Shown here piece after piece: positions 1,963 through 48,034 of a stretch of 64,000 nt of DNA (position 1 is its first letter; every line of letters begins with the position of its first letter). The position numbers were made by a program, and so were the translations under genes. The notes beneath the pieces were generated by a model. It was not told the DNA's origin, ran no database searches, and saw only the letters and a list, made by a program, of their open reading frames with translations. The DNA comes from Bacteroidales bacterium (GTDB taxonomy: Bacteria > Bacteroidota > Bacteroidia > Bacteroidales > JAADJA01): the NCBI GenBank assembly GCA_030596605.1, contig JAUVJI010000002.1:2904-66903 (forward strand), written 5' to 3'.

Positions 1963-2016
1963 GCAAATAATAATTCATCCCCGGCGAATAATAATTTACC
2001 ACAAATAATCCAAACC
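1963..2016 (+). repeat. Degenerate GCAAATAATAAT / CGAATAATAAT / ACAAATAATCCAAA motif cluster upstream of the LytTR gene
   Basis: TTTGCAAATAATAATTCATCCCCGGCGAATAATAATTTACCACAAATAATCCAAACC aligns with 11609-11650. Confidence 0.45.
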
Positions 2017-2063: not shown

Positions 2064-2561
2064 ATGGAGAGAATCATTATCATAGATGATATGAACTGCA
2101 AGAAAGGCCTTCAGGAATTCCTTGAAGCCAATAAGGAGCATATTCGATACAGCACAACGATTGACAACTTAAAAAATACAACAAAGTTTTTCATTGATGA
2201 ATTAACCGGTAATTATGAATCCGAAAACAAGCTCGCTGTAAATACCGACAAACAAATCAATATCATCCATACCCATGAAATAATTTACCTTGAAGCATCA
2301 GGCAAAAAAACTAAACTACATCTGAGTAATAATAAATGTGTTGAAGCAATAAACAGTATCGATTCTTACGGCAAAAAGCTTATTAGTGCAAATTTCATAA
2401 GAGTCCACGAACAATATATTGTAAACCTTGAGTATTTCTCAAAATTCAATTTTAAAAATAAACTGGAACTTGAACTCCACAATGGGATTACCATTCCAGT
2501 TGATACTAATAAAAAAGACTTACTAATAAATTATATTGAAAACATAAGTGATAAAATTTAA
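2064..2561 (+). CDS. LytTR-domain DNA-binding regulator with truncated or degenerate receiver remnant
   Basis: The C-terminal ~100 aa (IIHTHEIIYLEASGKKTKLHL...FIRVHEQYIVNLEYF...ITIPV) has the LytTR pattern. The N-terminal ~60 aa starts like a receiver (RIIIIDD) but is far too short for a full REC domain. No histidine kinase gene is present in the window. Confidence 0.75.
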   Translation: MERIIIIDDMNCKKGLQEFLEANKEHIRYSTTIDNLKNTTKFFIDELTGNYESENKLAVNTDKQINIIHTHEIIYLEASGKKTKLHLSNNKCVEAINSIDSYGKKLISANFIRVHEQYIVNLEYFSKFNFKNKLELELHNGITIPVDTNKKDLLINYIENISDKI

Positions 2562-2570
2562 TTAAAACAA

Positions 2571-5500: not shown

Positions 5501-7787
5501 TTTAGGGAATGAAATCACATTTAAACCTTATTCTGATATTGCAGGTGATTGGGAGGGTATTTATTTCCATGATTATAGCGATGTCTGGAGCGGAACTTCT
5601 ACTATGGAGTATTGTGTAGTGGATAAAGGGAATGAATATAATGTTTACACTTCATCTACCACTCAACCTTCTATTGACCATTGTACATTTAGCAATGCTG
5701 TTCAATATGGGATTAAAGAAAACAATTCATCACCCCAAATCCATAATTCCCAGTTTTTAAGTAATGGTAGCTATCCGATATATTATGCTAACTGGTCATG
5801 TAACTCCCATTTATTTGGCAATACTTATTCTGGCAACAATCCGGATTTAATTGCTTTGGAAGGTGGGGATTATAGCGCAGACCAAACATTTTATAATGAT
5901 GGTATAGAGTACCATGTCCTGAATACAATAAGAGTCGTTAAAACTTCTGATCCCCGTACCTTAACTTTAAAACCAGGGGTAACCTTAAATTTCGATCCGG
6001 GCACCAGGTTGCAGATTGCTGCATACGATGGATATCCTGGCCAGGGTGGTATGTTAATTGCAAATGGGAATATCGACAGTTTGATCACATTTAAGCCGTA
6101 CAACGATATTGCAGGTGGTTGGGAAGGGATCTACTTCCATGACCGTAGCGATAGTTGGAGCGCTGTGTCATCAATGAAATTCTGCCATGTTGAAAAAGCA
6201 AATAGTTATAATATTCATTTCGAATCGACTAACCAACCTGCAACTTTTGAAAATTGTGAAATAATTGATGCGGTTGGTAATGGATTATATTTTAATAGTG
6301 CAACACCGATTATTGTAAGTTCATCCATTACAAACAATGGAGGTCATGGTATATATCTTGATGGAACAAGTAATCCTGTTATTGGAAATAATACATCTTC
6401 AACTTGTAATATTTTTGGGAACGGGCCTTATGATGTTTACAACAATACGGCAAATGATATTGATGCCCGCAACAACTACTGGGGAACCGGCGACTCTGCC
6501 ATGATCGCTTCCCGGATTTATGATTATTATGATAATACTGCCAAAGGGATTGTCATCTTCGAGGACTTTGCACAGATTCCATCCATACCTACAGCAACTA
6601 CTTTATTAAGCGGTAACGTTTGGTACAATAATGCTTCTTCAACAGATATGGAGGATGCCCTGATGGAGATCTTTGATTTTGGAGGATCGCCTATATCCAG
6701 CACAAATACTAATACTTCCGGTTATTATTCATTCAGTTCCTTTGCTTCAGGAAACTACACATTGGACATTACACCTGATGATGTCTGGGGAGGTGCAAAC
6801 TCAACGGATGCCCTATTGATCCTGAGACATTTTGCTCATCTTGATACACTGGAGGGTATGGAATACGCTTCTGCTGATGTTAATTACAGTCAAACAATTA
6901 ATGGAACAGATGCATTGTTTGTATTGAAACGTTTTGCAGGCATGATCACATCCTTCCCGTCAGGTGACTGGCTTTATAATACCGAAAATCTTACCATTAA
7001 TGGCAACCAGGTTGTAAATGATTTTGCCATGTTGTGTTTTGGTGATGTAAATTCAAATTACATGGAGCCACCAAAGGATGATAATTCTGTTAATCTTGTT
7101 TATGAAGGAACCCAGATTATTCAGTCATTCACTGCTTTTGATTTGACGATTTCAATAAAGGATATGATTGAAGCAGGTGCTATTTCACTTGGTCTTATCT
7201 ATCCTGAAGAATATATAGAGATTACCGGAGCCGAATTAATAAATACAAATGGTAATGCAATTTACACAGTTGAAGACGGATTATTCCGAATTGCTTTTGC
7301 TGACCCTAATGGTGTGAATTATGCTGCCGGGGATGAAATGTTAGTTATAAATTGTGTGGCTAAAGATTTGTCATACATGCAGGAACCGATTCTTGTTGAG
7401 CTCTATGAAGATAGTGAATTCGCTGACCCAATGGCTCAGGTTATCAATGATGTTACTCTTTCAACACCTGAATTAACTACACTTGCCGTTGGAATTAACA
7501 ACCAAATTGCTGATGGATTATGGCTAAGTGATAACTATCCGAATCCATTCAATAAATCAACAACAATTCACTACCAGATTCCTGAATTCGGCTATGTGAA
7601 TATTAAAGTATTTGACATTACTGGTACAATTGTCACCGAGCTAGTGAATAGTAATCAAAAAGGAGGTGAATATACCGTCGAATTTAAATCAGATGATCTT
7701 GAGCCTGGAATCTATTTCTATAAACTTGAATTCAGAAATTCTGAAAATCATAATAGTTTGATAAATAAAATGAGTGTAACACGTTAA
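2571..7787 (+). CDS. Giant modular surface protein: Kelch-like repeats, three 190-aa parallel-beta-helix-type repeats, dockerin-like segment, cohesin-like module, T9SS CTD
   Basis: 1738-aa ORF. A signal-like segment follows the alternative ATG at 2601 (MKDNLHF...LLGYNSNAQ). Kelch-like VVGGY/VMGGR/VVGGS/IIGGY repeats cover ~2800-3750. An exact 570-nt periodicity spans 4677-6386. STDALLILRHFA...GTDALFVLKRFAG lies at ~6780-6945. A cohesin-like AISLGLIYPEEYIEITG block lies at ~7085-7480. The protein ends with YPNPFNKSTTIHY...GIYFYKL. Confidence 0.85.
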   Translation: MFINLKIFYVMKDNLHFRAVTKGLLLGLISLVLLGYNSNAQVSFTQTLNADFYKGVYNDLLVGSDNVYLPYQATDVNTWLTTTILPQTLEGHKTATWNNRYVYVVGGYNDVSYSSSVYRATLTTGGISSWTTENSLPVGLRDHAVVIGTNTIYVMGGRDDTNIYDEIYAATINSDGSLGTWDLLSVTLPETLWGHTAAYCGGYIYVVGGSNIMSSTYAVPGVYYSEVQADNSLTSFATNEAMFQGRNGHSMVVHGTTFYIIGGYDDFGNKKNTVLYNTSQLNGQLTAWSYATSLPIAISNHSSVIMNGLITVLAGESGGTLSNSVYYADINTSPLVWNLATNVIYDRTKDGAAFATTFATNGWIGYCGGENLSGTPIHNSRYANLTLSADYEKNGFFVSNPFYELGAEREITELTFSASNPAGSNTEIAYRTAGEDLDWDNWTALTSTSPVVIGITDRYLQYKIVFTGDGSVTPTFHDMNLWTPGTELAGNLNGWTTFDFASSPYWVTADISFTGGTHTFDAGVELNFLPQTGMTVSTANIICNGTVTDSVRFRGYTSEIGLWDGIYFDPNSDNGVSSQFYYTVIEGAGYGSWNANLYCNSTNEPLLMHSSLRGADGHGLNLNASHLTIEETFFGGNTESGVYHNNSNPSFLNCEMSDNQFAGIYLSSVASEPNFYTVLSANNTYAMYYPSPNFTILPPNGSNLTFTNNTYDGICFEAGVVSQSQVWNSVAYDYILLGDVFVRANSSTPRLTIEPGNTIKTIQGSKLQIGDYTGYPGQGGELYAIGTVDSLITFTSWNSTVGGWEGIYFHNYNDSWGGVSVMDYCVIENGNDYNMLCDQSTQPAISNSIIRDAVTDGIRFNDSYGSVASSVFSNFGRYPIYFTDWKASPTLSGNTYSAKGINLIALEAGDYSSDRTLYNDGIDYLVLNTIRVMANSSTPMLTVEAGLTLNFASGTILQLAGYDGYPGQGGELYAVGSLGNEITFKPYSDIAGDWEGIYFHDYSDVWSGTSTMEYCVVDKGNEYNVYTSSTTQPSIDHCTFSNAVQYGIKENNSSPQIHNSQFLSNGSYPIYYANWSCNSHLFGNTYSGNNPDLIALEGGDYSADQTFYNDGIEYHVLNTIRVVKTSDPRTLTLKPGVTLNFDPGTRLQIAAYDGYPGQGGMLIANGNIDSLITFKPYNDIAGGWEGIYFHDRSDSWSAVSSMKFCHVEKANSYNIHFESTNQPATFENCEIIDAVGNGLYFNSATPIIVSSSITNNGGHGIYLDGTSNPVIGNNTSSTCNIFGNGPYDVYNNTANDIDARNNYWGTGDSAMIASRIYDYYDNTAKGIVIFEDFAQIPSIPTATTLLSGNVWYNNASSTDMEDALMEIFDFGGSPISSTNTNTSGYYSFSSFASGNYTLDITPDDVWGGANSTDALLILRHFAHLDTLEGMEYASADVNYSQTINGTDALFVLKRFAGMITSFPSGDWLYNTENLTINGNQVVNDFAMLCFGDVNSNYMEPPKDDNSVNLVYEGTQIIQSFTAFDLTISIKDMIEAGAISLGLIYPEEYIEITGAELINTNGNAIYTVEDGLFRIAFADPNGVNYAAGDEMLVINCVAKDLSYMQEPILVELYEDSEFADPMAQVINDVTLSTPELTTLAVGINNQIADGLWLSDNYPNPFNKSTTIHYQIPEFGYVNIKVFDITGTIVTELVNSNQKGGEYTVEFKSDDLEPGIYFYKLEFRNSENHNSLINKMSVTR
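4677..6386 (+). repeat. Three in-frame tandem coding repeats of exactly 570 nt (190 aa)
   Basis: The landmark GG(T/A)TATCC(G/T)GG(T/C)CA(A/G)GG(C/A/T)GG recurs at 4890, 5460 and 6030. GGCAA(C/T)ACTTATTC recurs at 5247 and 5817. The protein repeat reads ...GYPGQGGELYA.G....ITF......GGWEGIYFH...D.W......YC...... Confidence 0.9.
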
Positions 7788-7798
7788 AATCTGTAATT

Positions 7799-10700
7799 AT
7801 GAAAACGAAATTTATAATAATCATTTCGGCGCTTTTCATAATTACCTGGCCGGTTTTGCTGCAAAGTCAAACGATAGTAACCACAGCCGGGTCACCATCA
7901 GAGTGTCCCGGGGAAATTGTGGTTCCTATTACAGTGACCAATTGCAACGGGGTCGGAGCCATTTCACTTGTCTTTCAACACGATACCGGGATCCTGACTT
8001 ATATGAACTATGAGAATGTTCATGCAGATTTATCCACAGGACTCCTTATCGTTAATCAGACCGGTGATAAAGTGATCATAAGCTGGGCTTCGACTACTGC
8101 TGCCAATATCGGAAGCGGAACCCTGATGGACATCCGTTTTTCAGGGGTTACCGGAAACAGCAGTTTAACGTGGGACACACAAACACCAGGTAATTGTGAA
8201 TATAGCGATTCAAACGGAAATATTCTTCCGTCTTCTTATACCAACGGCACGGCTACGATTTATCAAGTGCCGGAGGTACTTGATCATCCAGATGATGTTA
8301 CGGCCCTTGTGAACGATGATGTAAGCTTTAGCGTAAATGCCCTAAGCACAGGTATCAGCAGATTATGGTACAGGAGTACGGATGGAGGAACAAACTGGTT
8401 TTCAACCGGAGTAACCTCAGCAACATTGAATGTTTATGATGTAACATTGGACATGGATGGATATTTATACCGCTGCGAGATCAGTGGCACATGCAGTCCA
8501 ATAGCAATCTCTGATGAGGCAGAGTTAACGGTGATTCAACCGTTGATTACATCATTTGATGTGCAGGATGTTTGTCCGGGAAATATTACAATCCCAATCC
8601 TGACATCCAATTTTACGGATGTCGCTTCCCTGTCATTGGCATTTAGCTATAATACCTCAACTTTAACCTATTCGGGTTATCAGAATGTAAATTCCCTGTT
8701 GCCCGGAAACTTTGTATGTAATGAAGTGGGTGGAATGGTATATATGACATGGTCAACTACTTCACCTGTAACTTTTGGAACTGATACAACGCTAGTTGAA
8801 ATTCAATTTACAGGAGCAACCGGAAGCAGTAACCTGACATGGGACTTGACAACACCGGGAAATTGCGAATACACCTATTTGAATGCAGATCAAATTGTTT
8901 CTGTTTTCCAGGACAATTCGTTTACCATTTACCAGGTGCCGCAAATCAATGTTCAACCTGTTGATAAGCTGATCCCGGAAAATACCGGAACTAGCTTTAG
9001 TGTGTCAGCCGTAGCTTCAGGAATTAATTATCAATGGCAGATAAGTACTGATGATGGTGGAATTTGGACAGACATGATCAATGGTGGCCAATACAGTGGT
9101 GTGACATCAGCCACCCTTAACATTTCCAGTGCCTCGCTCTCAATGAGTGGTTATTGGTATCGTTGTATTGTAGGTGGGTATTGTTTACCTGATGCTATTT
9201 CTGATCCCGCCGAATTGATTGTCCTGCCAAGAATAACAGCAATTGCAGGAAATGTTTCTGATTGTCCGGGGACTATTACAGTACCTATTGATGTTACCCA
9301 TTTTATCAATGTTGCAGCCTTTTCCTTAACACTTAATTTTGATGAGGCCATATTAACCTTTGATAATTATCAATCGTTACATAGTAACCTATCAGGTGGA
9401 AGCTTTGCTTTAAATGCTGTTGATGGAAAAGTTTACATGACATGGACTTCAACCACGCCGGCTACCATCGGCGATGACCTTTTGATAGAATTGTTATTTA
9501 CCGGTATCACCGGAAGCAGTTCATTGAACTGGAATAATAGTGTTGAAGGAGCCTGTGAATTCAGCGACCTTGATGGAAATATCATTTTCGATAATTATAT
9601 AAATGGCAATGTCACTGTCTATCAACCTCCGATAATAACCGGTGATCCATCAAATCAAACGGCACCTGAAGGTACTGGAACAAGTTTTTCCGTTTCAGCA
9701 ACAGGAACGGGATTAAGTTACCAATGGCAGGAAAGTGACGATGATGGAAACAACTGGAATAATTTGTCGAACATCGCACCTTATTCAGGAGTAAATACTG
9801 CAACATTACAAATCAATCCAGTTGACCAAACAATGGATGCTTATCAATACAGGTGCAGGGTGTCAGGAACATGTCCGCCGCTGGTTTATTCAAGTTCTGC
9901 AATATTGAATGTGATACCTCCTGTTATTCATACTTCAGCTGGAGATATTTCAAATTCCTGTACAGGCAACATTACTGTACCTATAGGCGTGAGTAATTGT
10001 AATAATGTCGGGGCTATTTCTTTGGCTGTGAATTATGATAATACCAAACTGACTTATGAAGGTTATCAGTCACCAAACAGCGAATTAAGTGGAGGTATGT
10101 TAATTATAAATGCAACAGCAACACAGATTATACTCAGTTGGGCTTCGGTTAATCCGGCGGATATAGGTTTTGGAACTTTGATAGAATATAAATTTAAGGC
10201 CAATGCCGGAACTTCAACAACACTAATCTGGGATACACAGACACTTGGAAATTGCGAATACAGCGACCCTGACGGAAATATTTTTGCCATGGCATTTAAC
10301 ACCGGTGATATTTCTATCGCAGCCAATGCTTTGGTTGTAGATGCCGGAAGTGATGAAACAATAAGTCCGGGAGGGTCAGTCCAGTTAAATGGTTCGGCAA
10401 CAGGTGGTACTTTGCCTTATGGGATACAATGGACACCAACAAACTGGCTGACAGATCCAAATATTTTAGATCCTATAGCTGATCCACCAACTACAACCAC
10501 TTATACTTTAACAGTAATGGATAACCTGGGATGTTCAGGATCTGATGAAATGACGGTTAATGTGACTACAGCTGGAATTGACCTGGAATTGAAAGCTTTC
10601 CTGGAAGGTCCATTCAGCGGAACAACAATGGGAACAGAATTAAATAGCAATAATCTGATTCCACATAATCATCCTTACTCAGGGGCGCCATGGAATTATT

Positions 10701-11245
10701 CAGGATCGGAATATGTAACATGCATTCCAAATACTAATATTACTGACTGGGTAATGGTAGAATTAAGAGAGACAAGTGGCGGAGCTTCAACGGCAACCGG
10801 AGGAACAATGATCGTGCAGCAAGCAGGATTTATCCTGAATGATGGAAATATTGTGGATACAAATAGTACTAACATGATGCATTTTGATGTATTCATTACA
10901 CAAAATCTTTATGTTGTTATCTGGCATAGAAATCATCTGGCTATTATGTCATCCGGACCATTGACAAATGTGGGGGCAACATATTCCTGGGACTTTACAA
11001 CAGGTTCAGGACAGGCTCATGGAACAGATGCCCAGAAAATCCTTGGAGGAGTTTACGGCATGTATGCCGGAGATGGTGATGCCAATGGTACTGTTGAAAC
11101 AGCTGATAAAAGTGCAGTTTGGGGCTCACAGGTTGGAATGAAAGGTTATTACTCAGGTGATTTTGATATGAACGGCCAGGTGATGAACCAGGATAAAAAT
11201 GATGTTTGGTTAGGTAACTTTAATGAACAAACACAGATACCATAA
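7799..11245 (+). CDS. Scaffoldin-like secreted protein: 4 x (cohesin-like + Ig-like) modules, SprB/PKD-like segment, C-terminal LEGPF/HRNHL module with dockerin-like loops; no T9SS CTD
   Basis: Signal peptide MKTKFIIIISALFIITWPVLLQSQ. There are four ~230-aa repeats. Each has a CPG.I.VPI.V......AISL.F.YD...LTY...W.....G..TL block (cohesin-like). Each also has a YQWQ.S.DGG..W......YSGV.SATL.I......GY.YRC block (Ig-like). The C-terminus ends ...NEQTQIP. Confidence 0.85.
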   Translation: MKTKFIIIISALFIITWPVLLQSQTIVTTAGSPSECPGEIVVPITVTNCNGVGAISLVFQHDTGILTYMNYENVHADLSTGLLIVNQTGDKVIISWASTTAANIGSGTLMDIRFSGVTGNSSLTWDTQTPGNCEYSDSNGNILPSSYTNGTATIYQVPEVLDHPDDVTALVNDDVSFSVNALSTGISRLWYRSTDGGTNWFSTGVTSATLNVYDVTLDMDGYLYRCEISGTCSPIAISDEAELTVIQPLITSFDVQDVCPGNITIPILTSNFTDVASLSLAFSYNTSTLTYSGYQNVNSLLPGNFVCNEVGGMVYMTWSTTSPVTFGTDTTLVEIQFTGATGSSNLTWDLTTPGNCEYTYLNADQIVSVFQDNSFTIYQVPQINVQPVDKLIPENTGTSFSVSAVASGINYQWQISTDDGGIWTDMINGGQYSGVTSATLNISSASLSMSGYWYRCIVGGYCLPDAISDPAELIVLPRITAIAGNVSDCPGTITVPIDVTHFINVAAFSLTLNFDEAILTFDNYQSLHSNLSGGSFALNAVDGKVYMTWTSTTPATIGDDLLIELLFTGITGSSSLNWNNSVEGACEFSDLDGNIIFDNYINGNVTVYQPPIITGDPSNQTAPEGTGTSFSVSATGTGLSYQWQESDDDGNNWNNLSNIAPYSGVNTATLQINPVDQTMDAYQYRCRVSGTCPPLVYSSSAILNVIPPVIHTSAGDISNSCTGNITVPIGVSNCNNVGAISLAVNYDNTKLTYEGYQSPNSELSGGMLIINATATQIILSWASVNPADIGFGTLIEYKFKANAGTSTTLIWDTQTLGNCEYSDPDGNIFAMAFNTGDISIAANALVVDAGSDETISPGGSVQLNGSATGGTLPYGIQWTPTNWLTDPNILDPIADPPTTTTYTLTVMDNLGCSGSDEMTVNVTTAGIDLELKAFLEGPFSGTTMGTELNSNNLIPHNHPYSGAPWNYSGSEYVTCIPNTNITDWVMVELRETSGGASTATGGTMIVQQAGFILNDGNIVDTNSTNMMHFDVFITQNLYVVIWHRNHLAIMSSGPLTNVGATYSWDFTTGSGQAHGTDAQKILGGVYGMYAGDGDANGTVETADKSAVWGSQVGMKGYYSGDFDMNGQVMNQDKNDVWLGNFNEQTQIP
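7871..10325 (+). repeat. Four tandem ~690-nt coding repeats (cohesin-like + Ig-like module)
   Basis: Module boundaries are marked by ...IYQVPE (about 8263), ...IYQVPQ (about 8935), ...VYQPP (about 9625) and ...ISIAAN (about 10325). Confidence 0.8.
10577..11242 (+). other. LEGPF/HRNHL module copy A (domain I could not match to a named family, with two dockerin/EF-hand-like loops)
   Basis: IDLELKAFLEGPF...DWVMVELRETSGGAS...HRNHLAIMS...GDGDANGTVETAD...GDFDMNGQVMNQDKND...QIP. Confidence 0.8.
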
Positions 11246-11608: not shown

Positions 11609-11650
11609 TCGCAAATAATAATCCAACCCCGGCAAATAATAATTCATGTC
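11609..11650 (+). repeat. GCAAATAATAATCCAA-CCCCGG-CAAATAATAATTC motif pair upstream of the 11749 gene
   Basis: CTTCGCAAATAATAATCCAACCCCGGCAAATAATAATTCATG belongs to the same family as 1963-2016, 11493-11510, 17341-17358 and 18551-18567. Confidence 0.45.
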
Positions 11651-20610: not shown

Positions 20611-20646
20611 AAACCAGCTAACGGTAAAATCAAATCAGTTAACGGT
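20611..20646 (-). promoter_or_regulatory. Candidate LytTR-type operator upstream of P1 (two 15-mers, 21-bp register)
   Basis: Gene-strand sequence: ACCGTTAACTGATTT (exact, 20632-20646), then ACCGTTAGCTGGTTT (20611-20625). Lies 102-137 nt upstream of the start codon. Confidence 0.6.
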
Positions 20647-22583: not shown

Positions 22584-22620
22584 TTTTTTAGGAAATGTTT
22601 ATAAAAATAAAAACAGGTTT

Positions 22621-22628
22621 CAAATATA
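22621..22628 (-). promoter_or_regulatory. Bacteroidota -7 box-like element (TATATTTG) upstream of P2
   Basis: The gene-strand sequence TATATTTGAAACCTGTTTTTATTTTTATAAA is shared almost verbatim with the P3 upstream region. It matches the TAnnTTTG consensus and lies ~40 nt upstream of the ATG. Confidence 0.45.
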
Positions 22629-22721
22629 ATCATTTGATATGTTATATGCAAGAATGATATTCTAAGATATTGGACTGTAGGCGTATGAAGTTAAAATTTA
22701 ACTTTATACCCAATTGCAAAT

Positions 22722-24581: not shown

Positions 24582-24617
24582 TTTATTAGGTAATTTTTAT
24601 AAAAATAAAACAGGTTT

Positions 24618-24625
24618 CAAATATA
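24618..24625 (-). promoter_or_regulatory. Bacteroidota -7 box-like element (TATATTTG) upstream of P3
   Basis: Gene-strand TATATTTGAAACCTGTTTTATTTTTATAAA lies ~40 nt upstream of the ATG at 24581 and is a duplicate of the P2 upstream block. Confidence 0.45.
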
Positions 24626-24719
24626 GTCATTTGATATTGTAAATGCAAGAGTTAATCAGTTTGTGGTAAGTTACCCCCTCCCTTTCTCCCCCCCTGGAGG
24701 GGGAGGGTTGGGGTGGGGG

Positions 24720-26591
24720 TTATTCAACCATCATCTTCTTTGTAACAGCTGCTTCCCCCGCATTCACCGTGTAAAAATACAATCCCGGATTAATTCCAAC
24801 TGCATCAATTGTGATATAATGAACGCCCGGCTGAAGATAACCTATATTTATTTCTATAACTTTCTGGCCTGTAAGGTTAGTAACCTCCAAAAAAACATTG
24901 CAATCATCGAAAAGCTCAATTTGTATCACTGTTTCAGAAGTAAACGGATTTGGAATATTCTGGCTTACTTTAAGGCTTTCATCTGGAGATTTATTTTCAA
25001 AAATTCCTACACCTTTATAAACTTTCATAAACCGAATAAAGTTTTCACCATATGGATCTTCATCACCTTTTATAGCCATTCCGGGTTCAGTATCAGCTTG
25101 ATAAACAAGATAAAACCAATCATCAGAAAAAGATGCGACAGAAGGAAAAACACATTCATCAAAAATATGGATCAGGTCGGAGGTCAGGTCATAAAAAGGA
25201 CCCCAGAAATCTCCATTAAATGACCAACGAGCCCATAGATGACGATAACTTTGTGTACCGTTGTCATAGGTTTCTGTAACTGATGAATAAACAACATAAA
25301 TGTTGTTGAGTTCATCAATAATGATCTGTGGCATACTTGATAATCCCAGGTAATATTTTGCAATATCATCCCATAGGATATCAATCGTACCATTTTGATT
25401 AATATCCTGGGTCCAGCCAATCAAACTGTAATCTTCAACAAGTTCTGAGTAAATACAATCTGCAAAAGGGCATAATGCATTCAAATCATTCGAAAAAGTT
25501 GGCCTGGTTTCATTCCAGTATCCAATCCCTCCAACTCCGGAAAACCAGAATGTTCCTTCACCATCACTATGTGCCCTGTTGATCCCGAATACAATGTGAA
25601 CCATACCATCCTGATCGAAAGCAAGGCCATGAGCACCGTCAGCACAATAGAAAGTGTCTGTCGGATACATATTATTGGGATCCCACATTGGATAAGGATG
25701 TTCCCAGATAATGGTTTGTGTCCATGTGTCACCTCCATCAGTAGATTTTAAAAGTCCGAGATCCTGCCAAAATTCACCATAAAGAATAGCAACATTGTTT
25801 CCATCTGCCTGAACTTCATAAGTGTCGCCGGAGAAAGCCAGATAATTAGCGCTGTTTAATTCATCAAAGAGTACATCTTGCATATCCCAGGTATCACCAC
25901 CATCAGGTGACCTGGAATATAACAATGCACCGTCAATTCCCTGATAAAGTGAGCCACCATTTGCAATTGGAAGGGTTAAAGCAATTTGATGAACAATACT
26001 GTGATTAATCCCTCCTGTTGTCATCCTGGGCCAAACCATTTCATTGCCTACAGGTGTCAGGTAATCTATTAGGGTCCAATCGCCAGTTCCCTTTTCTGAC
26101 CTTCTGGCATATACCAAACCATCAATGGCAGCACCTGAATAGTGTGCAACATTGATCTCACCATTTTCACCCCAGGCTGCGTATGCCGGCCAACCGGTAC
26201 GGTCCTCCTCTAATATTCCCGATGGATATGATCCCCAATCGCTGCCATCAAAATAGTTATAACCGGTACCCCTGTCATCGAAATTCGGAAAATCAAATCC
26301 CATAGTCCATACCCCACCAATAGTACCATCATCATATACAAAGATCCTGTTCTGCATACTTGCATTACTTTGCAGGTCAAAATAGGTGCTACCAATAATA
26401 TCTTCATCAACATAAACAAAATCTTGTGGTGAGGATGGTAAAGCTTCGTGACTGAAATTCATTGTTTCAAGCACTGGTGGAACTTTTTTTTCCGCAAAAT
26501 TCCGATGGTATTCTGAGATTGTCACCCTTTGCTGTGCAAATCCTGCCATAACTAATGCCAGGACTAAGCTTAAAAGTAAAAGTCTTCTCAT
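24720..26591 (-). CDS. Asp-box (BNR) beta-propeller protein with T9SS CTD, paralog P4
   Basis: The ORF is open to 26717, but the signal peptide MRRLLLLSLVLALVMAGFAQQ starts at the ATG at 26591 and aligns with the P5 start. Asp-boxes YSRSPDGGDTW and LKSTDGGDTW. The CTD is of the P2/P3 type. Confidence 0.8.
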   Translation of the reverse strand: MRRLLLLSLVLALVMAGFAQQRVTISEYHRNFAEKKVPPVLETMNFSHEALPSSPQDFVYVDEDIIGSTYFDLQSNASMQNRIFVYDDGTIGGVWTMGFDFPNFDDRGTGYNYFDGSDWGSYPSGILEEDRTGWPAYAAWGENGEINVAHYSGAAIDGLVYARRSEKGTGDWTLIDYLTPVGNEMVWPRMTTGGINHSIVHQIALTLPIANGGSLYQGIDGALLYSRSPDGGDTWDMQDVLFDELNSANYLAFSGDTYEVQADGNNVAILYGEFWQDLGLLKSTDGGDTWTQTIIWEHPYPMWDPNNMYPTDTFYCADGAHGLAFDQDGMVHIVFGINRAHSDGEGTFWFSGVGGIGYWNETRPTFSNDLNALCPFADCIYSELVEDYSLIGWTQDINQNGTIDILWDDIAKYYLGLSSMPQIIIDELNNIYVVYSSVTETYDNGTQSYRHLWARWSFNGDFWGPFYDLTSDLIHIFDECVFPSVASFSDDWFYLVYQADTEPGMAIKGDEDPYGENFIRFMKVYKGVGIFENKSPDESLKVSQNIPNPFTSETVIQIELFDDCNVFLEVTNLTGQKVIEINIGYLQPGVHYITIDAVGINPGLYFYTVNAGEAAVTKKMMVE

Positions 26592-26670
26592 GATCGTTTT
26601 TTTTAAGTTAGTAATATTTTTTTTAAGTGAATTCTCAAATATAAAAAGATTATATATTAAAGTCAAGGAT

Positions 26671-26706
26671 AAATCAGTTAACGGTGGGGAAAAGTAAGAA
26701 TTCGGT
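26671..26706 (-). promoter_or_regulatory. Candidate LytTR-type operator upstream of P4
   Basis: Gene-strand sequence: a degenerate ACCGAATTCTTACTT (26692-26706), then an exact ACCGTTAACTGATTT (26671-26685) 21 bp away. The proximal copy ends 27 nt before a TATATTTG -7-box-like element. Confidence 0.55.
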
Positions 26707-28983: not shown

Positions 28984-29019
28984 AAATCAGTTAACGGTTG
29001 AAATAAATCAGTTAACGGT
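28984..29019 (-). promoter_or_regulatory. Candidate LytTR-type operator upstream of P5 (two exact 15-mers)
   Basis: AAATCAGTTAACGGT occurs at 28984-28998 and 29005-29019 on the plus strand. This is ACCGTTAACTGATTT twice on the gene strand, with starts 21 bp apart. The proximal copy ends 26 nt before TAAATTTG. Confidence 0.65.
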
Positions 29020-29212: not shown

Positions 29213-30685
29213 ATGTCGTTATCTTTGCGATTAACTTATTGGAGAATTTATAATTTGGTGAAAAAAGTATACCTGTTAGTAATAAAATCTTACCTCGGGC
29301 CATTGGTCATGACCTTTTTTATATCATTGTTTATCCTTCTGATGCAATTTTTATGGAAGTATATTGATGATCTGGTGGGAAAAGGACTTGAATGGTACAT
29401 CATAGCAGAGCTTTTATTTTATGCATCATCTACTTTTGTTCCGCTAGCACTTCCACTGGCCATTTTGCTTTCATCACTAATGACTTTTGGGAATCTTGGT
29501 GAACATTATGAACTGGTTGCCATGAAGGCCGCCGGTATTTCATTAAGGAGAATTATGCTCCCGCTTATTATTATGTCAATTTTTATAAGTGGTATTGCCT
29601 TTTATTTTTCTAATAATGTACTACCCATTGCCAATTTGAAATTCAAATCATTACTTTATGATGTAAGGGAACAAAAACTTGCCCTGGATATTAAGGAGGG
29701 TGTTTTTTATACCGGAATTGATGGATTTGTCATCAGGGTTGGTAAAAAGGATAAAGACGACCAAACCATAAGGGATGTGATGATTTATGACCACAGGAGT
29801 AAAAAAGGAAATGTAAATTTAACTGTGGCTGATTCAGGAAGAATGGAACTTACTTCCGATGGTTTAAACCTAGTATTTATGCTTTACAATGGATTCAATT
29901 ATTTGGAAAAGACCGATCAGAAGAATTATAAAAAAACCAATCCTTATCAAAGAACTAAATTCAGAGAGGAAATACGTAAATTTAATTTGATGGACTTTGA
30001 ATTAGAACGAACTAACGAAGATCTCTTTAAGAGTAATTATTCAATGCTTAATTTGCGTCAGTTGAGGAATGCAGAAGATTCATTGATTGCCCAGATAAAC
30101 GAAAAAAAAGACAAAAACCCTGCTTCAACCCTGAATAAATTCAATTTCTATTCTAAAATAGATTCAAGTAAATTAGTAAGCTTTGAATCAGACAAACCTT
30201 ATATTACAGATCTATTACAAGAGTTTAAGGATTATGAAAAGGTTAATATCATTGAGGAGGCAACAAACAGGCTAAGAAGGGACCGACAAACTTTACAGAA
30301 TCATAAAACGGAAATCGAACTCAAAAAAAAGCTGGTTTTCAGGCATCAGGCTGAGTGGCACAGAAAATTTACTCTCTCATTTGCCTGCTTTGTCCTGTTT
30401 TTCATCGGCGCCCCCCTTGGCGCCATCATTCGACGAGGAGGATTAGGATTACCGGTTGTAGTTTCTGTATTATTTTTTGTATTGTTCCACATCATTTCAA
30501 TTACAGGCGAAAAATCTGTAAAATCGGGTGTAGTTGATGCAAACATAGGCATGTGGATCGCTCCGGTTGTCCTCTTGCCTTTAGGGATATTCCTTACAAT
30601 AAAAGCCACAACCGATTCACCAATTCTGGATGCTGACTCATGGATAAAGATGTATAGCAGGATTTTTAAAAAAAGAATGGATTGA
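29213..30685 (+). CDS. LptF/LptG (YjgP/YjgQ) family permease
   Basis: Family-typical N-terminus ...IKSYLGPLVMTFF...LMQFLW.YIDDLVGKGL and MKAAGISLRRIMLPLII. A large periplasmic loop is followed by C-terminal TM helices. The true start may be internal, near 29255-29270. Confidence 0.75.
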   Translation: MSLSLRLTYWRIYNLVKKVYLLVIKSYLGPLVMTFFISLFILLMQFLWKYIDDLVGKGLEWYIIAELLFYASSTFVPLALPLAILLSSLMTFGNLGEHYELVAMKAAGISLRRIMLPLIIMSIFISGIAFYFSNNVLPIANLKFKSLLYDVREQKLALDIKEGVFYTGIDGFVIRVGKKDKDDQTIRDVMIYDHRSKKGNVNLTVADSGRMELTSDGLNLVFMLYNGFNYLEKTDQKNYKKTNPYQRTKFREEIRKFNLMDFELERTNEDLFKSNYSMLNLRQLRNAEDSLIAQINEKKDKNPASTLNKFNFYSKIDSSKLVSFESDKPYITDLLQEFKDYEKVNIIEEATNRLRRDRQTLQNHKTEIELKKKLVFRHQAEWHRKFTLSFACFVLFFIGAPLGAIIRRGGLGLPVVVSVLFFVLFHIISITGEKSVKSGVVDANIGMWIAPVVLLPLGIFLTIKATTDSPILDADSWIKMYSRIFKKRMD

Positions 30686-31887
30686 TGAAAGTATTGTTTC
30701 TGTGCAATAAATCTCCATATCCACCCAGAGAAGGTGGCCCCATGGCAATGAATGCCAATATCGAGGGACTTATTAATACTGGTCACATAGTAAAAGTACT
30801 TGCCCTTAATACAAATAAATATTTTATCGACTCTAAGGAGATTCCCGGGAAGTATAAAAAAGAAACAGGTATTGAATTGATCTATAAAGATCTGTCTGTA
30901 AAACCAATTGAAGCATTTATAAACCTTTTCTCAAAAAAATCATATCACGTGGAAAGGTTCATTTCCAAAGAATTTGAAAATAAAATCATCGAAGTACTAT
31001 CCAGGAAAAATTTTGACATTGTACAATTGGAAATGCTTTACATGACTCCGTACATTGAAACAATAAGGAAATATTCAGATGCGAAAATAATCCTAAGATC
31101 ACACAATATCGAACACTTAATATGGAGCAGGATCACGTCTTCCACAAATAATCCATTTAAAAAAAAATACCTTGAACATTTAACGGGCAAACTAAAAGCG
31201 TATGAGTTGGCAACCATGAATAATGTCGACGGAATTGTTGCTATAAGCAATAAGGATGCTGATTATTATAAACAACAAGGTTGCCGGATTCCTGTTACGG
31301 ATATCCCATTTGGTGTTGATATTAGCAAATATAACTTGTCAGGTTCAGACTATGAGTTCCCTTCATTGTTTCATTTAGGTTCAATGAACTGGATGCCCAA
31401 CGAAGAAGGGATTAAATGGTTTTTGGATAATGTTTGGGATAGGATAAATAAAAAATTTCCCGTATTAAAATTTTATCTTGCCGGTAGAATGATGCCCTCC
31501 TGGCTGTTAAAAATAAATCTGGCCAATGTTGAAGTTCTGGGCGAGGTAGATAATGCAAAGAAATTTATTCAATCCAAAGGTGTTATGATTGTGCCATTGT
31601 TCTCAGGAAGTGGTATCAGGATAAAAATTATTGAAGGTATGGCATTGGGAAAAACTATTATTTCAACTAAAATCGGCGCTGAAGGAATTAACTACACGAA
31701 TGGAAAAAACATCATAATTGCCGATACACCGGATGAATTTCTCGATGCTATAGAAAAGTGTGTTCAAAATAAAGTGTATTGTGAACAACTTGGACAAAAT
31801 GCCAAAAAACTAATTGAACAAAATCACAATATTGAAAGTACTACTCAAAAACTAGTAGGTTTTTATAATAAGCTTTTGGAAAATTGA
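30682..31887 (+). CDS. Glycosyltransferase, GT4-like (group 1)
   Basis: GT-B C-terminal motif ...PLFSGSGIRIKIIEGMALGKTIISTKIGAEGI. The ATGA start/stop overlap with the permease gene suggests an operon. Confidence 0.75.
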   Translation: MMKVLFLCNKSPYPPREGGPMAMNANIEGLINTGHIVKVLALNTNKYFIDSKEIPGKYKKETGIELIYKDLSVKPIEAFINLFSKKSYHVERFISKEFENKIIEVLSRKNFDIVQLEMLYMTPYIETIRKYSDAKIILRSHNIEHLIWSRITSSTNNPFKKKYLEHLTGKLKAYELATMNNVDGIVAISNKDADYYKQQGCRIPVTDIPFGVDISKYNLSGSDYEFPSLFHLGSMNWMPNEEGIKWFLDNVWDRINKKFPVLKFYLAGRMMPSWLLKINLANVEVLGEVDNAKKFIQSKGVMIVPLFSGSGIRIKIIEGMALGKTIISTKIGAEGINYTNGKNIIIADTPDEFLDAIEKCVQNKVYCEQLGQNAKKLIEQNHNIESTTQKLVGFYNKLLEN

Positions 31888-31931
31888 CTTATTTTTGAGC
31901 CTTTCAATAATAACAAAGGTTTAACAGCTGC

Positions 31932-33098
31932 ATGAAAATTTTTGTACTTTTACCACGTTTCCCTTATCCCCTTGAAAAAGGCGATAAACTAAGGGCTTAC
32001 AACCAAATCAGGCAGCTTTCGGTAAAAAATGAAATTTTCCTTTGCACATTAAGTGACATTAAAATAAAACCCGAATATATTAAAGCATTAGAGCCTTATT
32101 GCAAATCAATCACCAATTTCAATATTTCGAAAATTTCTATAATCATCAATGTTTTTTTGGCCTTTTTTAATGGTAAACCATTCCAGGTTGGATATTTCTA
32201 CAATTCAGGCATTAATAAAAAGATTGACAAGTTGATATACAAAATACAACCCGACCATATTTATTGTCAACTCATTCGGGTTGCAGAGTATGTGAAGAAT
32301 AAAAAAATTCCAAAAACGCTTGATTACCAGGATGTTTTTTCAAAGGGTGTGGAACGAAGGCTCAAAACTTCTCCCTTTTATCTCAAACCGGTTTTAAAAT
32401 CAGAATATAAACGGCTATTAAAATATGAGGCCGATATATTTGATTATTTTGACAATAAAACCATCATATCCAAGCCCGATCGGGATCTTATTCAGCACAA
32501 GGATAAAGATGATATTAGGATTGTCATCAATGGAGTAGATACAGAATATTTTAAACCTATGGAAATTACCAAAGAATATGAGTTGGTATTCATCGGGAAT
32601 ATGGGTTATCCTCCAAATGTAAATGCTGCCGAATATTTGGCTAAAGAGATTTTACCCATTGTTCATAAGCAAAAGCCAAACATAAAGTTAGTATTGGCTG
32701 GGGCATCGCCACATGCTAAAGTTACAGCATTAAAATCCGACAATGTAGAAATAACAGGTTGGGTGGAGGATATCAGAGAATGTTATGCAAAAGCAAAAAT
32801 TTTTATTGCCCCTATGCAAATCGGCACAGGTTTGCAAAATAAGCTTTTGGAGGCCATGGCCATGAAAATTCCATGTATTACTTCGCCCTTAGCCAATGAA
32901 GCACTCGAAGCAAAAGATGGTGTAGAAATTTTGGTTGGAGCAACAACTGAAAATTTTGCCAATCACATCATTAATTTGCTTGATAAAAAAGAATTGGCAG
33001 AGGAACTGGCTTTGAATGGATATAATTTTGTCCATCGTAATTTTAACTGGACTGCCGCGACAAGTGAACTGGATAGATTAATGCAAACCAATGGTTAG
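31932..33098 (+). CDS. Glycosyltransferase, GT4-like (group 1)
   Basis: C-terminal motif ...APMQIGTGLQNKLLEAMAMKIPCITSPLANEAL. Same strand as, and adjacent to, the previous GT gene. Confidence 0.75.
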   Translation: MKIFVLLPRFPYPLEKGDKLRAYNQIRQLSVKNEIFLCTLSDIKIKPEYIKALEPYCKSITNFNISKISIIINVFLAFFNGKPFQVGYFYNSGINKKIDKLIYKIQPDHIYCQLIRVAEYVKNKKIPKTLDYQDVFSKGVERRLKTSPFYLKPVLKSEYKRLLKYEADIFDYFDNKTIISKPDRDLIQHKDKDDIRIVINGVDTEYFKPMEITKEYELVFIGNMGYPPNVNAAEYLAKEILPIVHKQKPNIKLVLAGASPHAKVTALKSDNVEITGWVEDIRECYAKAKIFIAPMQIGTGLQNKLLEAMAMKIPCITSPLANEALEAKDGVEILVGATTENFANHIINLLDKKELAEELALNGYNFVHRNFNWTAATSELDRLMQTNG

Positions 33099-33120
33099 TA
33101 TTATATTTAACCACTAAAGA

Positions 33121-33180
33121 TCACACATAATTCTCAGAGAACACAGAAGGTCTGTGCATATCCGTGGGTTCTGTGTGAAA
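33121..33180. repeat. Palindromic CACAGA-word element after the GT gene (same word family as 37378-37465)
   Basis: ...CAGAGAACACAGAAGGTCTGTGCATATCCGTGGGTTCTGTGTG. Its reverse complement CACACAGAACCCACGG resembles CACAAAGAGCCACGG at 37430-37444. Confidence 0.5.
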
Positions 33181-33214
33181 AAATAAACTCTAAATTCACA
33201 TCAATTTTTAACTG

Positions 33215-33397
33215 ATGAAAACTGTAATGTTGGTTTTAATAGGTTTGTCATTTTTAGGTTTTATTGTTGGCCTGGCAGGGAAAAGTGTGGCTGTAAAGAA
33301 AAAAACCCTTAAAAAAAGCGAAATTTATAACCGGATAACCATTCTTTTTCTAATTTTAATGTTTGCTTTTGCAATTACTTATTCATTTGTTAATTAA
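33215..33397 (+). CDS. Small two-TM membrane protein (hypothetical)
   Basis: 60-aa ORF with two hydrophobic helices flanking a KKKTLKKSE loop. It is intergenic, on the same strand as its neighbours, and has no recognised homology. Confidence 0.35.
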   Translation: MKTVMLVLIGLSFLGFIVGLAGKSVAVKKKTLKKSEIYNRITILFLILMFAFAITYSFVN

Positions 33398-33408
33398 TTT
33401 CAATCAAT

Positions 33409-33765
33409 ATGGATCAAACAAACCAGCAAGTAAGGGATGAGAGAATGTGGGGCATGTTTTGTCATTTAAGCGCTTTTGCCATGTATTTTATTCCATTTGG
33501 CAGTGTAATAGGGCCTTTGATTATCTGGTCCATCAAAAAAGATGAATTTCCTTTTGTCAATGAACAAGGAAAAGAAGCCCTGAATTTTCATATATCGATG
33601 ATCATTTACTATATCATTGCCGCAATTTTAATAATAATTGTCATTGGCATTGCACTACTGATCGCCCTATGGGTATTTCAAATGATTATGATAATTCTTG
33701 CCTCCATCAAAGCAAATAATGGAGAAACATTCAGGTACCCCCTTTCCATCAGGTTTATAAACTGA
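33409..33765 (+). CDS. DUF4870-like membrane protein
   Basis: MWGMFCHLSAFAMYFIPFGSVIGPLIIWSIKKDEFPFVNEQGKEALNFHIS is the characteristic DUF4870 signature. Confidence 0.7.
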   Translation: MDQTNQQVRDERMWGMFCHLSAFAMYFIPFGSVIGPLIIWSIKKDEFPFVNEQGKEALNFHISMIIYYIIAAILIIIVIGIALLIALWVFQMIMIILASIKANNGETFRYPLSIRFIN

Positions 33766-33838
33766 AAATTCGATTTTCCTAAAAAATAATTTCATTTACT
33801 TTTGCATCACTTATTAAGTTGAATTTTAGACTTTGAAG

Positions 33839-35209
33839 ATGGCTCAAAAACCTTCGATACCGAAAGGGACCCGCGATTTTTCTCCAACTGAAATGGTGAG
33901 GAGAAATTACATTTTTGATACAATTAAATCTGTTTTTCAGCTGTATGGCTATCTGCCCATTGAAACTCCGGCTATGGAGAATCTATCAACTTTATTGGGA
34001 AAATACGGTGAAGAAGGTGATAAGTTGTTATTCAGGATTTTAAATTCAGGAGATTATTTAAACAAAATTCCAAAAGAAAAATTCCAATCCCGATGGCTAT
34101 CGGGACCAAGTACAAGTGAAATATCACCCTTTATTTCGGAGAAAGGCCTGCGATATGATCTTACCGTACCATTTGCCCGTTATGTTGTTCAGCACAGAAA
34201 TGACATCACCTTTCCTTTCAAACGTTATCAAATACAGCCTGTCTGGCGCTCCGACCGGCCGCAAAAAGGGAGATACCGCGAATTTTATCAATGTGATGTG
34301 GATGTAATCGGAAGTGATTCCTTACTAAATGAAGTGGAGCAAATCCAAATTATTGATGAGGTTTTTAAGGAACTTGGTATCAAGGTTTCTATCAAAATAA
34401 ATAACCGAAAGATACTATACGGAATTGCTGAAGTAACAGGAGAAACAGATAAATTTAAAGATATTACTACAGCTATTGATAAATTAGATAAAATCGGAAT
34501 AAATGGTGTTACTCCTGAACTCCAAGCAAAAGGAATTTCTAATGACACTATTTATAAATTGATGTCAATACTTGACTCTGGTCCAGATAGAGTTTCATTA
34601 TCGCAATTTTATGATATTCTGAAAAACTCTGAAATAGGGATGAAAGGTGTTAATGAAATTCAAACTATTTTGGGTTATTGTGATGATTTGTTAATATCTA
34701 ATGAAATACGCTTTGTCCCAATTTTAGCTCGTGGACTTAATTACTATACAGGAACAATCATTGAAGTAACTGCAAATGATGTTAAAATGGGTAGCCTTTG
34801 CGGTGGAGGAAGGTATGATAACTTAACAGGCATCTTCGGGTTACCAAATGTTTCAGGAATGGGAGTATCTTTTGGCGCTGACAGGATTTATGATGTGATG
34901 CTCGAAAAAAACCTATTCCCTAAGGACACTCAGGAAACAACACAAGTGATGTTTGTTAACTTCGGTGAAAAAGAACAGAAATATTGTCTGCCACTGGTTC
35001 ATCAATTAAGATCATCTGGAATTAACGCGGAACTTTTCCCGGAATCTGCAAAACTTAAAAAGCAGATGAATTATGCCAACAATAAAAATATACCTTTTGT
35101 TGTGTTAGTGGGCGATAATGAAATGGAAGGAGATTATTTGACTGTTAAGAATATGAACTCAGGTGAGCAAAAACAAATGTCACTGGAAGAAATCATCGGC
35201 CAATTCTAA
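33839..35209 (+). CDS. hisS: Histidine--tRNA ligase
   Basis: [16 protein letters not shown]..., the class II motifs ([44 protein letters not shown]) and a C-terminal anticodon-binding domain. The ATG at 33839 is preferred over the TTG at 33833. Confidence 0.92.
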
Positions 35210-44949: not shown

Positions 44950-44985
44950 ACCGTTAACTGATTTCATGCAACCGCTAACTTACTT
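44950..44985 (+). promoter_or_regulatory. Candidate LytTR-type operator upstream of P6
   Basis: ACCGTTAACTGATTT (44950-44964, exact) and ACCGCTAACTTACTT (44971-44985), 21-bp register. Lies 155-190 nt upstream of the start at 45140. Confidence 0.6.
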
Positions 44986-45139
44986 GGTCTTGTTTTTTAA
45001 TTTCAATTTATGTAATTTGCGATGTTTTTAAATTTAGAGTTGTAATGTATATTAATTAAGTATTTTTGTAATATTTAATTTACCTCTTAAATAGAAATTT
45101 ATAAAATAATAATTTGTTTAATTTTAAAAAAAATCAACT

Positions 45140-47122: not shown

Positions 47123-48034
47123 ATGATTGAAACAATTAAAATAGGGACACTACGATGGCATCATATTCTAAACCCCTCTGATGAAAACCTTGAATACCTC
47201 AAAGATAATTTCCATTTTCACCCCCTGGATATTGAAGACTGTAAAGAAGAATATAATCAGCGTCCTAAGGTTGATGTTTATGATGATTATTATTTTATGA
47301 TCTTGCACTTTCCCTTTTTCGACCGTTATAATAAATTTCTCCGTACACGGGAAGTTAAAATTTTCTGGGGTGAGGATTATGTTATAACAATTGGAAAGTC
47401 GCATTGGGTGGTTACTGAAATGTTTAAGGAAGGCAAAGAACAGGAAGCCCAAAGTGAAACTTTTGAGATTGGGACCAGTGATGCATTACTCTATGCCATT
47501 TTGGAAAGGTTAATGAAAGCAACCCAGATAATCATCAAAAAAATTGGAGATGATGTGGATTCCATAAACCGTGCTTTATTTGATATAAAAGCAGAAAGAA
47601 CAATTGAAAAAATTTCAATCATCAGGAAAAACATTATCCTGCTCAACACCATGTTTAAACCCCAGCTTCCTTTATTAGCAAGGTTTGAATCAGGGCAAAT
47701 TGAAGGATATGCCAACAACATGGAAGATTACTGGGGCAATATCCTCGACTATTACAAACAAATGTGGGATATGACTGAAGATTACGCCGAGTTGATCGAA
47801 GGTTTATCTCAAACGTTCGATTCATTACAGGCAAATCGTACCAACGAGATCATAAAAATCTTAACATTGATTTCCTCTATTCTGCTACCGTTAACCTTTT
47901 TAACCGGTTTGTACGGAATGAATGTCAATTTACCCCTTAAAGACGATCCGCGAGCTTTCTGGATTGTTATTGCAGCCATGCTTTTGATTGTTATAAGCAT
48001 GTACATTCTTTTTAAGCGAAAGAAATGGATGTAA
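47123..48034 (+). CDS. corA: CorA family magnesium/cobalt transporter
   Basis: Cytoplasmic N-domain plus two C-terminal TM helices with the signature LTGLYGMNVNLP (GMN motif). Confidence 0.85.
   Translation: MIETIKIGTLRWHHILNPSDENLEYLKDNFHFHPLDIEDCKEEYNQRPKVDVYDDYYFMILHFPFFDRYNKFLRTREVKIFWGEDYVITIGKSHWVVTEMFKEGKEQEAQSETFEIGTSDALLYAILERLMKATQIIIKKIGDDVDSINRALFDIKAERTIEKISIIRKNIILLNTMFKPQLPLLARFESGQIEGYANNMEDYWGNILDYYKQMWDMTEDYAELIEGLSQTFDSLQANRTNEIIKILTLISSILLPLTFLTGLYGMNVNLPLKDDPRAFWIVIAAMLLIVISMYILFKRKKWM

Follow-up and report, generated by a model that had tools for sequence, protein, structure and literature searches.

Head-to-tail pairs of a 15-bp repeat, set 21 bp apart, precede four members of a family of predicted secreted beta-propeller genes in a 64-kb stretch of Bacteroidales DNA (64,000 nucleotides of contig JAUVJI010000002.1, analysed over its full length and referred to here as the window), and it is probable that each pair is an activator site read by a two-component response regulator of the Bacteroidota in which a receiver (REC) domain is joined to a LytTR DNA-binding domain. 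The pair is conserved in other genomes, keeps a fixed distance to the predicted promoter, is oriented towards the gene that follows it and is linked in a near-obligate fashion to a single family of regulators.

The 15-mer ACCGTTAACTGATTT occurs five times without mismatch in the window, at 20632-20646(-), 26671-26685(-), 28984-28998(-), 29005-29019(-) and 44950-44964(+), compared with 0.00 copies in 100 dinucleotide shuffles, and these are the five copies listed in a preliminary description of the sequence. That description also gave every copy an exact or degenerate partner 21 bp away, which is borne out: degenerate partners lie at 20611-20625 (two mismatches) and 44971-44985 (three mismatches), and a weaker distal one, ACCGAATTC at 26698-26706, stands 21 bp upstream of the copy at 26671-26685. 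The result is four head-to-tail pairs, at 20611-20646(-), 26671-26706(-), 28984-29019(-) and 44950-44985(+), and a scan of the 64 kb for ACCGWWAAC-N12-ACCGWWAAC with up to three mismatches returned those four alone, against a shuffle expectation of 0.05 at up to two mismatches and 0.48 at up to three. The spacer between the 9-bp cores is exactly 12 bp in all four. The sole further near-match to the 15-mer lies within corA (47887-47901).

The pairs stand 80-190 nt 5' of four of the six propeller paralogs (P1, P4, P5 and P6), within the limit of about 200 nt given previously. The P5 site (28984-29019, minus strand) consists of two exact copies of ACCGTTAACTGATTT with starts 21 bp apart, the distal one at 29019-29005 and the proximal one at 28998-28984, and its distance of 109-144 nt to the ATG agrees with the earlier figure. 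At P4 (26671-26706, minus) the exact 15-mer is proximal (26685-26671) and the distal half-site, ACCGAATTCTTACTT at 26706-26692, is degenerate, giving two mismatches to ACCGWWAAC x2. At P1 (20611-20646, minus) the exact copy is distal (20646-20632) and is followed by ACCGTTAGCTGGTTT at 20625-20611; the same arrangement is found at P6 (44950-44985, plus), with the exact copy at 44950-44964 followed by ACCGCTAACTTACTT at 44971-44985, and the P6 site has an orthologue in a related metagenome-assembled genome (MAG; locus L041).

Promoters of Bacteroidetes carry a -33 element, TTTG, and a -7 element, TAnnTTTG, and candidate boxes were assigned by eye against this consensus. For P5 the predicted -7 box, TAAATTTG, lies at 28957-28950 on the minus strand, 26 nt past the proximal 15-mer as previously reported and in agreement with a TTT peak seen in sites from other genomes (below), and a -33-like TTGG (28979-28976, minus) begins 4 nt past the 15-mer. 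P4 has a predicted -7 box, TATATTTG, at 26636-26643 (minus), 27 nt past the proximal 15-mer, with TTGA 4 nt past it, and P6 has a -7-like box, GTAATTTG, at 45012-45019 (plus), 26 nt past the site, with TTGT at 4 nt. P4, P5 and P6 thus share one geometry, in which the proximal 15-mer is followed after 4 nt by TTGN and after 26-27 nt by a TAnnTTTG-like box, so that the proximal core would end 10 bp before the predicted TTG and 32 bp before the predicted TAnnTTTG. P1 offers two candidates between 20577 and 20594 (minus), TAATTTTG at 20594-20587, 16 nt past the site, and TATCTTTA at 20584-20577, 26 nt past it, the latter having the spacing typical of the family. The half-site consensus reads ACCG[T/A][T/A]AACTGATT[T/A], a 15-bp unit made up of a 9-bp LytTR-type core and a TGATTT tail, and the 21-bp period between half-sites is that of two helical turns.

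The paralogs share only 53-66% protein identity with P1 and their coding DNA is 60-81% identical, and the upstream DNA common to the P1, P4, P5 and P6 promoters is limited to a block of 36-44 nt beyond which the flanks cannot be aligned. The five exact 15-mers are for this reason not the product of recent duplication, and their identity is best read as the mark of selection rather than of recent copying.

A pattern scan of 185,579 representative genomes (596 Gb) with ACCGTTAACTG-N10-ACCGNTARC matched at least 119 loci where about 9 would be expected by chance according to our own arithmetic. Among the matches listed, to which all counts in this paragraph refer, 41 of the 119 loci were removed as 7-bp satellite repeats and approximately 10 as stray or satellite-like, leaving about 68 loci with true pairs, spread over about 37 MAGs that bear the label Bacteroidota or Bacteroidales (in one case Chlorobiota), with up to six pairs per MAG; the P5 and P6 promoters have near-identical orthologues at two loci of MAG SMBSF75. 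Conservation extends to positions on which the pattern placed no constraint, with A12 in 60 of 78 sites, CT before the second TGATTT tail, and the tail itself (positions 31-36) kept in 70, 58, 61, 61, 72 and 55 of the 78. At site positions 67-69, 31-33 nt past the pair, a TTT peak is present in 62 of 78 sites and may be taken as the -7 box at a fixed distance. A gene start in the same orientation follows within 300 nt in 43 of 52 sites, a divergent one in 12 of 52, and only 2 of 52 lie inside long open reading frames; the element is thus intergenic and directional. Some promoters (L023, L061, L064, L103, L005) have three half-sites at 21-bp spacing rather than two. The satellites that the same pattern picks up consist of 7-bp units (TTAACCG/TTAACTG) in tandem and occur in cyanobacteria, Myroides, Flavobacterium silvaticum and Poribacteria, among others (L002, L007, L010, L016, L019, L034, L042, L059, L106 and about 30 more); they share the GTTAAC core and are otherwise unrelated to the operator.

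In nine of the motif-derived loci, among the matches listed, a LytTR gene ends just 5' of the pair on the same strand, and in a tenth (L067) a ACCGAAAAC x2 variant occupies the same place. The site-linked LytTR genes form one family of about 250 residues with REC and LytTR domains and 53-74% identity within the LytTR domain. Linkage was assessed in 80 metagenome loci retrieved by LytTR-domain protein similarity alone, the motif not being used. A strict core match placed a pair within 400 bp downstream of the regulator in 61 of the 80, the spacer being 12 bp save for a few alternative calls of 20 or 22 bp, and a search for ACCGWWAAC x2 with up to two mismatches, restricted to a 21-bp period, found a pair directly after the regulator in 74 of 77 evaluable loci, compared with a single other match in 944 kb. 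The three exceptions have degenerate versions of the pair.

The surrounding cluster is also conserved. A kinase of about 1060 residues with Reg_prop propellers, a Y_Y_Y domain and a LytS-type His_kinase domain lies upstream of the regulator in 43 of 46 loci, a membrane protein of about 150 residues follows the pair in 56 of 67, and a CarboxypepD_reg/Plug protein of about 1240 residues, resembling TonB-dependent receptors, comes next in 40 of 40; this is the usual layout of a two-component system beside its primary target. In the small protein (L080, 6191-6646; L082, 3233-3703) a single membrane helix at the N-terminus is accompanied by a stretch rich in lysine and glutamine, an acidic middle part and, at the C-terminus, a conserved FD(I/L)R(K/R)AVIxxEILxRPY motif; the protein matches no Pfam or NCBIfam family. 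In MAG Kiruna_bin-04925 a regulator-adjacent site (L084) is accompanied by three remote ones (L036, L063, L105). A profile of the regulator gave weak PDB matches to the LytTR domain 3d6w and to ComE, with AgrA not among them. Regulator subfamilies at 45-50% identity have either no recognisable repeat (L213) or a different repeat with a CCGTT core (L214), from which it follows that the operator is specific to the regulator subfamily of at least about 60% identity. In L214 (6530-6580) the 45%-identical regulator is followed by CCGTT[C/G]GGTTA x2 at a 21-bp period upstream of a GH130-like type IX secretion system (T9SS) gene, and here the same layout appears to have been reused with shifted specificity.

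The arrangement resembles that of LytTR binding sites, in which imperfect 9-bp direct repeats of [TA][AC][CA]GTTN[AG][TG] lie upstream of the -35 element with 12-13 bp between them (PMC5600425), with a bias among LytTR regulatory systems to repeats 10 bp upstream of it (PMC6193735). The core ACCGTTAAC fits this admittedly loose consensus at 8 of 9 positions, as had been claimed, the exception being C at position 9 where T or G is expected; the common variant ACCGAAAAC meets fewer positions. The 12-bp spacer of the four window pairs likewise places them in the canonical 12-13-bp class, and together with the predicted 10-bp offset and the 74 of 77 regulator loci this supports the earlier designation of the element as a LytTR-type operator.

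On the reading that we consider probable, the element would be the upstream activator site of Bacteroidota sigma-A promoters laid out as [half-site]-6-[half-site]-4-TTG(-33)-18-TAnnTTTG(-7). The Reg_prop/Y_Y_Y LytS-type kinase would sense a periplasmic ligand, possibly a glycan by analogy with the hybrid systems of Bacteroides, and would phosphorylate the REC-LytTR regulator of about 250 residues, two molecules of which would then settle side by side on the same DNA face, one per half-site, and recruit RNA polymerase; the proximal core would stand 10 bp before the -33 element. The first target would be the ever-adjacent gene pair for the small membrane protein and the receptor-like protein, and P1, P4, P5 and P6 would have acquired the operator and respond together with genes for TonB, ExbB and receptors at other places in the genome. 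What we infer from the conserved features is that the regulator is encoded in the source genome, that it binds the pair, that it activates and does not repress, and what kind of signal it answers to.

A number of points weigh against this reading. Adjacency of site and regulator is strong circumstantial evidence and not proof of binding. The core is near-palindromic, and its opposite strand, TCAGTTAAC, also fits 8 of 9 consensus positions, so that either reading strand is acceptable; it deviates at consensus position 9, and the conserved unit, at 15 bp, is longer than the usual 9. Both promoter boxes, -33 and -7, are predictions made by eye, and the use of these promoters is likewise predicted. 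Propeller homologues at 55-61% identity (L207, L212) have no pair upstream. Among the matches listed, neither the source genome nor its closest relatives (the SMBSF75 and SMBSF39 MAGs) yielded an orthologue of the regulator. Kinase, regulator, small protein and receptor are all without an orthologue in the window itself, and a protein search with a LytTR-domain profile listed mostly partial proteins, two NCBI matches belonging to other MAGs.

The alternative that survives best, although we regard it as unlikely, is that the pair is the operator of a factor outside the LytTR class, for example of AraC type, and that its position beside LytTR genes is coincidental or reflects co-regulation. The I1-I2 sites of AraC have a 21-bp period too, so that this period is not unique to LytTR proteins, the 15-bp unit exceeds the classical 9-bp LytTR core, and the contact between regulator and pair is itself deduced. 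Such a factor would have to account for a pair directly after the regulator in 74 of 77 independent loci in which no other regulator gene is conserved, for the match to the LytTR consensus at 8 of 9 positions with a 12-bp spacer and a predicted 10-bp offset from the -35 equivalent (PMC5600425, PMC6193735), and for the related CCGTT-core repeat that the 45%-identical regulator subfamily has in the same position and at the same 21-bp distance.

The preliminary description had assigned the repeats to an orphan LytTR protein of 165 residues encoded at 2064-2561 (plus), which would bind them and control the propeller paralogs, and this we now judge to be quite improbable. The protein is the sole DNA-binding protein recognised in the window, its LytTR domain is genuine (E = 1.8e-13) even though a receiver domain is absent, and LytTR proteins of this receiver-less kind can activate through direct repeats (PMC6193735). 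However, it shares only 20-28% identity with the site-linked REC-LytTR family and its own family numbers 12 members in 5.8 billion proteins, whereas the motif is found in about 37 species-level genomes among the matches listed. Its conserved neighbours are not propellers: in every locus inspected the gene lies 5' of one for a Kelch/beta-helix/dockerin T9SS protein of about 1715 residues (1738 in the window), followed by one for a cohesin protein of about 1150-1159 residues. None of the five orphan loci scanned has an ACCGWWAAC pair, and the nearest ACCGTTAAC site is 18 kb away. The DNA upstream of the orphan has instead an invariant block of its own, CAAATAATAATTCATnnCCGGCGAATAATAATTT, which contains two copies of AATAATAATT with a period of 21 bp (AATAATAATT-N11-AATAATAATT; window 1966-1996, plus) and which is kept in two orthologous loci (L201, L202) despite diverged flanks; a second AATAATAATT repeat, with 0.02 expected, is found at 11614-11644 (plus) ahead of the following operon, upstream of the Fib_succ_major gene at 11749. 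This repeat is probably the orphan's own operator and the basis of a separate small regulon, and the orphan is probably not the regulator of the propeller sites. Its N-terminus (2064-2110), MERIIIIDD, resembles the first receiver-domain strand of full-length regulators (MIRAIIIDDE), and the orphan is possibly a response regulator from which the greater part of the receiver domain has disappeared. The trio of genes is strictly conserved in order in the window (2064-11245, plus) and in L201-L204, the dockerin match being weak and the second partner being of Ig/cohesin type, and it is possible that a cohesin and a dockerin are paired here in the context of T9SS. Directly upstream of the trio in L201 lies a gene pair for a TPR-His_kinase and a REC-LytTR protein.

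It is very improbable that duplication of promoters, or gene conversion, among the paralogs left the repeats behind as functionless remnants. All of the window copies do lie 5' of one gene family that is partly tandem, but the 15-mer is exact five times over between unalignable flanks and beside coding DNA of 60-81% identity, and in dozens of genomes the same element with the same promoter geometry stands before genes of other kinds (TonB, ExbB, receptors, adenosine deaminase); the idea is already contradicted by the sites in other genomes, the -7 spacing and the linkage to a regulator. An origin of the repeats as termini of a small mobile element, or as part of a simple satellite, a possibility raised at the outset and echoed by the tandem arrays that the same pattern matches in cyanobacteria, Myroides and Flavobacterium silvaticum, is hardly credible, since the window copies have no 7-bp periodicity or other tandem structure, no terminal inverted repeats and no shared flanks beyond the 36-44-nt block, the sites in other genomes are gene-directed at a fixed distance to the promoter box, and an Rfam scan found only a tRNA and nothing at the repeats.

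Comparison of the putative activator site with characterised systems reveals both likenesses and differences. AgrA of Staphylococcus aureus, also a REC-LytTR protein, reads two imperfect 9-bp direct repeats with a 12-bp spacer upstream of the -35 element at agr P2/P3 (PMC5600425, PMC4227749), but here the promoters are of the Bacteroidota -33/-7 type, the unit is 15 bp with a TGATTT tail, the sensor is a large periplasmic propeller kinase rather than the peptide-reading AgrC, and the targets are secreted and uptake proteins rather than a quorum-sensing RNA. PlnC and PlnD of Lactobacillus plantarum bind as cooperative dimers to two copies of TACGTTAAT with a 12-bp spacer directly before the -35 element of pln promoters, which share the CGTTAA core and combine one near-consensus repeat with one degenerate repeat (PMC2714321). 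The same combination is seen at P1, P4 and P6, but in pln the better repeat is proximal, whereas here the place of the exact copy varies, P1 and P6 having it in the distal and P4 in the proximal half-site, and the biology, bacteriocin quorum sensing, is different. The receiver-less LytTR proteins of the HdrRM and BrsRM systems of Streptococcus mutans use direct repeats 12 bp apart and 4-11 bp before the -35 element and are typically autoregulated (PMC6193735); it is the orphan at 2064-2561, with its AATAATAATT repeats, and not the ACCGTTAAC operator, that finds its best analogue in them, and they differ from the orphan in having a co-transcribed membrane-inhibitor gene where the orphan has the 1738-residue T9SS protein beside it. 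The hybrid two-component systems of Bacteroides polysaccharide utilisation loci have the same periplasmic Reg_prop propeller and Y_Y_Y sensor, and there is a likeness in the regulon, which contains genes resembling TonB-dependent receptors and genes for secreted glycosidase-like proteins. Here, by contrast, two separate proteins serve as kinase and regulator, the former with a LytS-type core (PF06580) and the latter with LytTR in place of AraC as output domain, the receptor has no SusD partner and many targets are T9SS cargo rather than lipoproteins.

The four genes of the window predicted to be regulated are P1 (18632-20509, minus), P4 (24720-26591, minus, with its ATG at 26591), P5 (26992-28875, minus) and P6 (45140-46993, plus), of which P5 encodes a 627-residue sialidase-like beta-propeller with a T9SS type A C-terminal domain (Pfam Por_Secre_tail). 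Pfam recognises only this sorting domain in the paralogs (Por_Secre_tail, E = 4e-12), and a sequence search against the PDB gave a weak match confined to the C-terminal domain. An AlphaFold2 model built on an alignment of 78 homologues reached a predicted local distance difference test score (pLDDT) of 85.8, a model from the six paralogs alone being discarded at 38.7, and the best Foldseek matches in the PDB were GH145 glycosidases (5mum, 5mvh, BT3686), GH33 sialidases and a PL42 rhamnose-glucuronate lyase, with probability 1.0 and a TM-score (target) of about 0.6. Model and structure search agree with the propeller label given earlier; P1-P6 are thus taken, on the basis of the model, to be secreted sialidase-like beta-propellers whose enzyme activity is predicted only. 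The family is large, with at least 1481 proteins, and uncharacterised.

The other two paralogs, P2 (20721-22577) and P3 (22722-24575), both on the minus strand, are without the operator, no copy of the pair being found in their upstream regions. They have in common a 50-nt promoter block (22604-22653 and 24601-24650, minus; family D18) that is 88% identical, contains TATATTTG and is operator-free, and they are presumably expressed independently of, and lie outside, the predicted regulon. In the spacer between P4 and P3 (approximately 24690-24740, minus), which is otherwise A+T-rich, a G+C-rich inverted repeat, ccctccccctcc aggg ggggagaaagggaggggg, looks like a terminator.

Within the window every exact copy precedes a member of this paralog family, as previously described. 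Homologues of the window's propellers lie 3' of a pair in at least five other MAGs in addition to the four genes of the window, but pairs also precede unrelated genes, and the more distant homologues L207 and L212 are without one, for which reason the link between motif and propeller is lineage-specific. A further locus, L210, comes from a more distant relative and shares synteny with window 29213-35209 (LptF/G, two glycosyltransferases, DUF4870 and HisRS); it contains one propeller gene, preceded only by the degenerate half-site ACCGTATCCTGATTT; the notion that the propeller family always carries the motif was rejected in view of L207, L212 and this degenerate copy. Locus L210 suggests that the tandem array and its operators expanded in the lineage of the window. 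The proposal of a regulon of T9SS cargo genes has been upheld in part. Among the matches listed, 13 of the 52 distinct genes downstream of true pairs encode a T9SS C-terminal domain, and several more are truncated before such a domain could appear, but the content is broader, including 8 genes for the small membrane protein, 4 for receptor-like proteins, 3 for TonB, 2 for ExbB and 3 for adenosine-deaminase-like proteins.

LytTR regulators are abundant in the Bacteroidota and, to our knowledge, little has been established about the regulation of T9SS cargo genes in environmental members of the phylum. The literature searched contained no defined operator or regulon for any Bacteroidota LytTR regulator, and searches with the motif string and with the kinase/regulator architecture yielded no description of the operator or of the two-component system. 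It is conceivable, and we advance it tentatively as having a little less than an even chance of being correct, that the ACCGWWAACTGATTT pairs mark an undescribed Bacteroidota-wide regulon in which a propeller-bearing LytS-type kinase and a LytTR regulator sense glycans in parallel to control by SusR, hybrid and extracytoplasmic function (ECF) systems, co-inducing T9SS enzymes, a giant SusD-less TonB-dependent receptor with its small membrane partner, and TonB/ExbB. If true, no transcriptional circuit for T9SS cargo other than PorXY/SigP would have been defined by sequence before it. The analysis yields a conserved and precise operator, a specific candidate two-component system and a list of target gene classes, with the consequence that the regulon can be predicted in any genome by pattern search, and the window provides an example of a gene family that has been recruited to it only in part, four of the six paralogs having the site.

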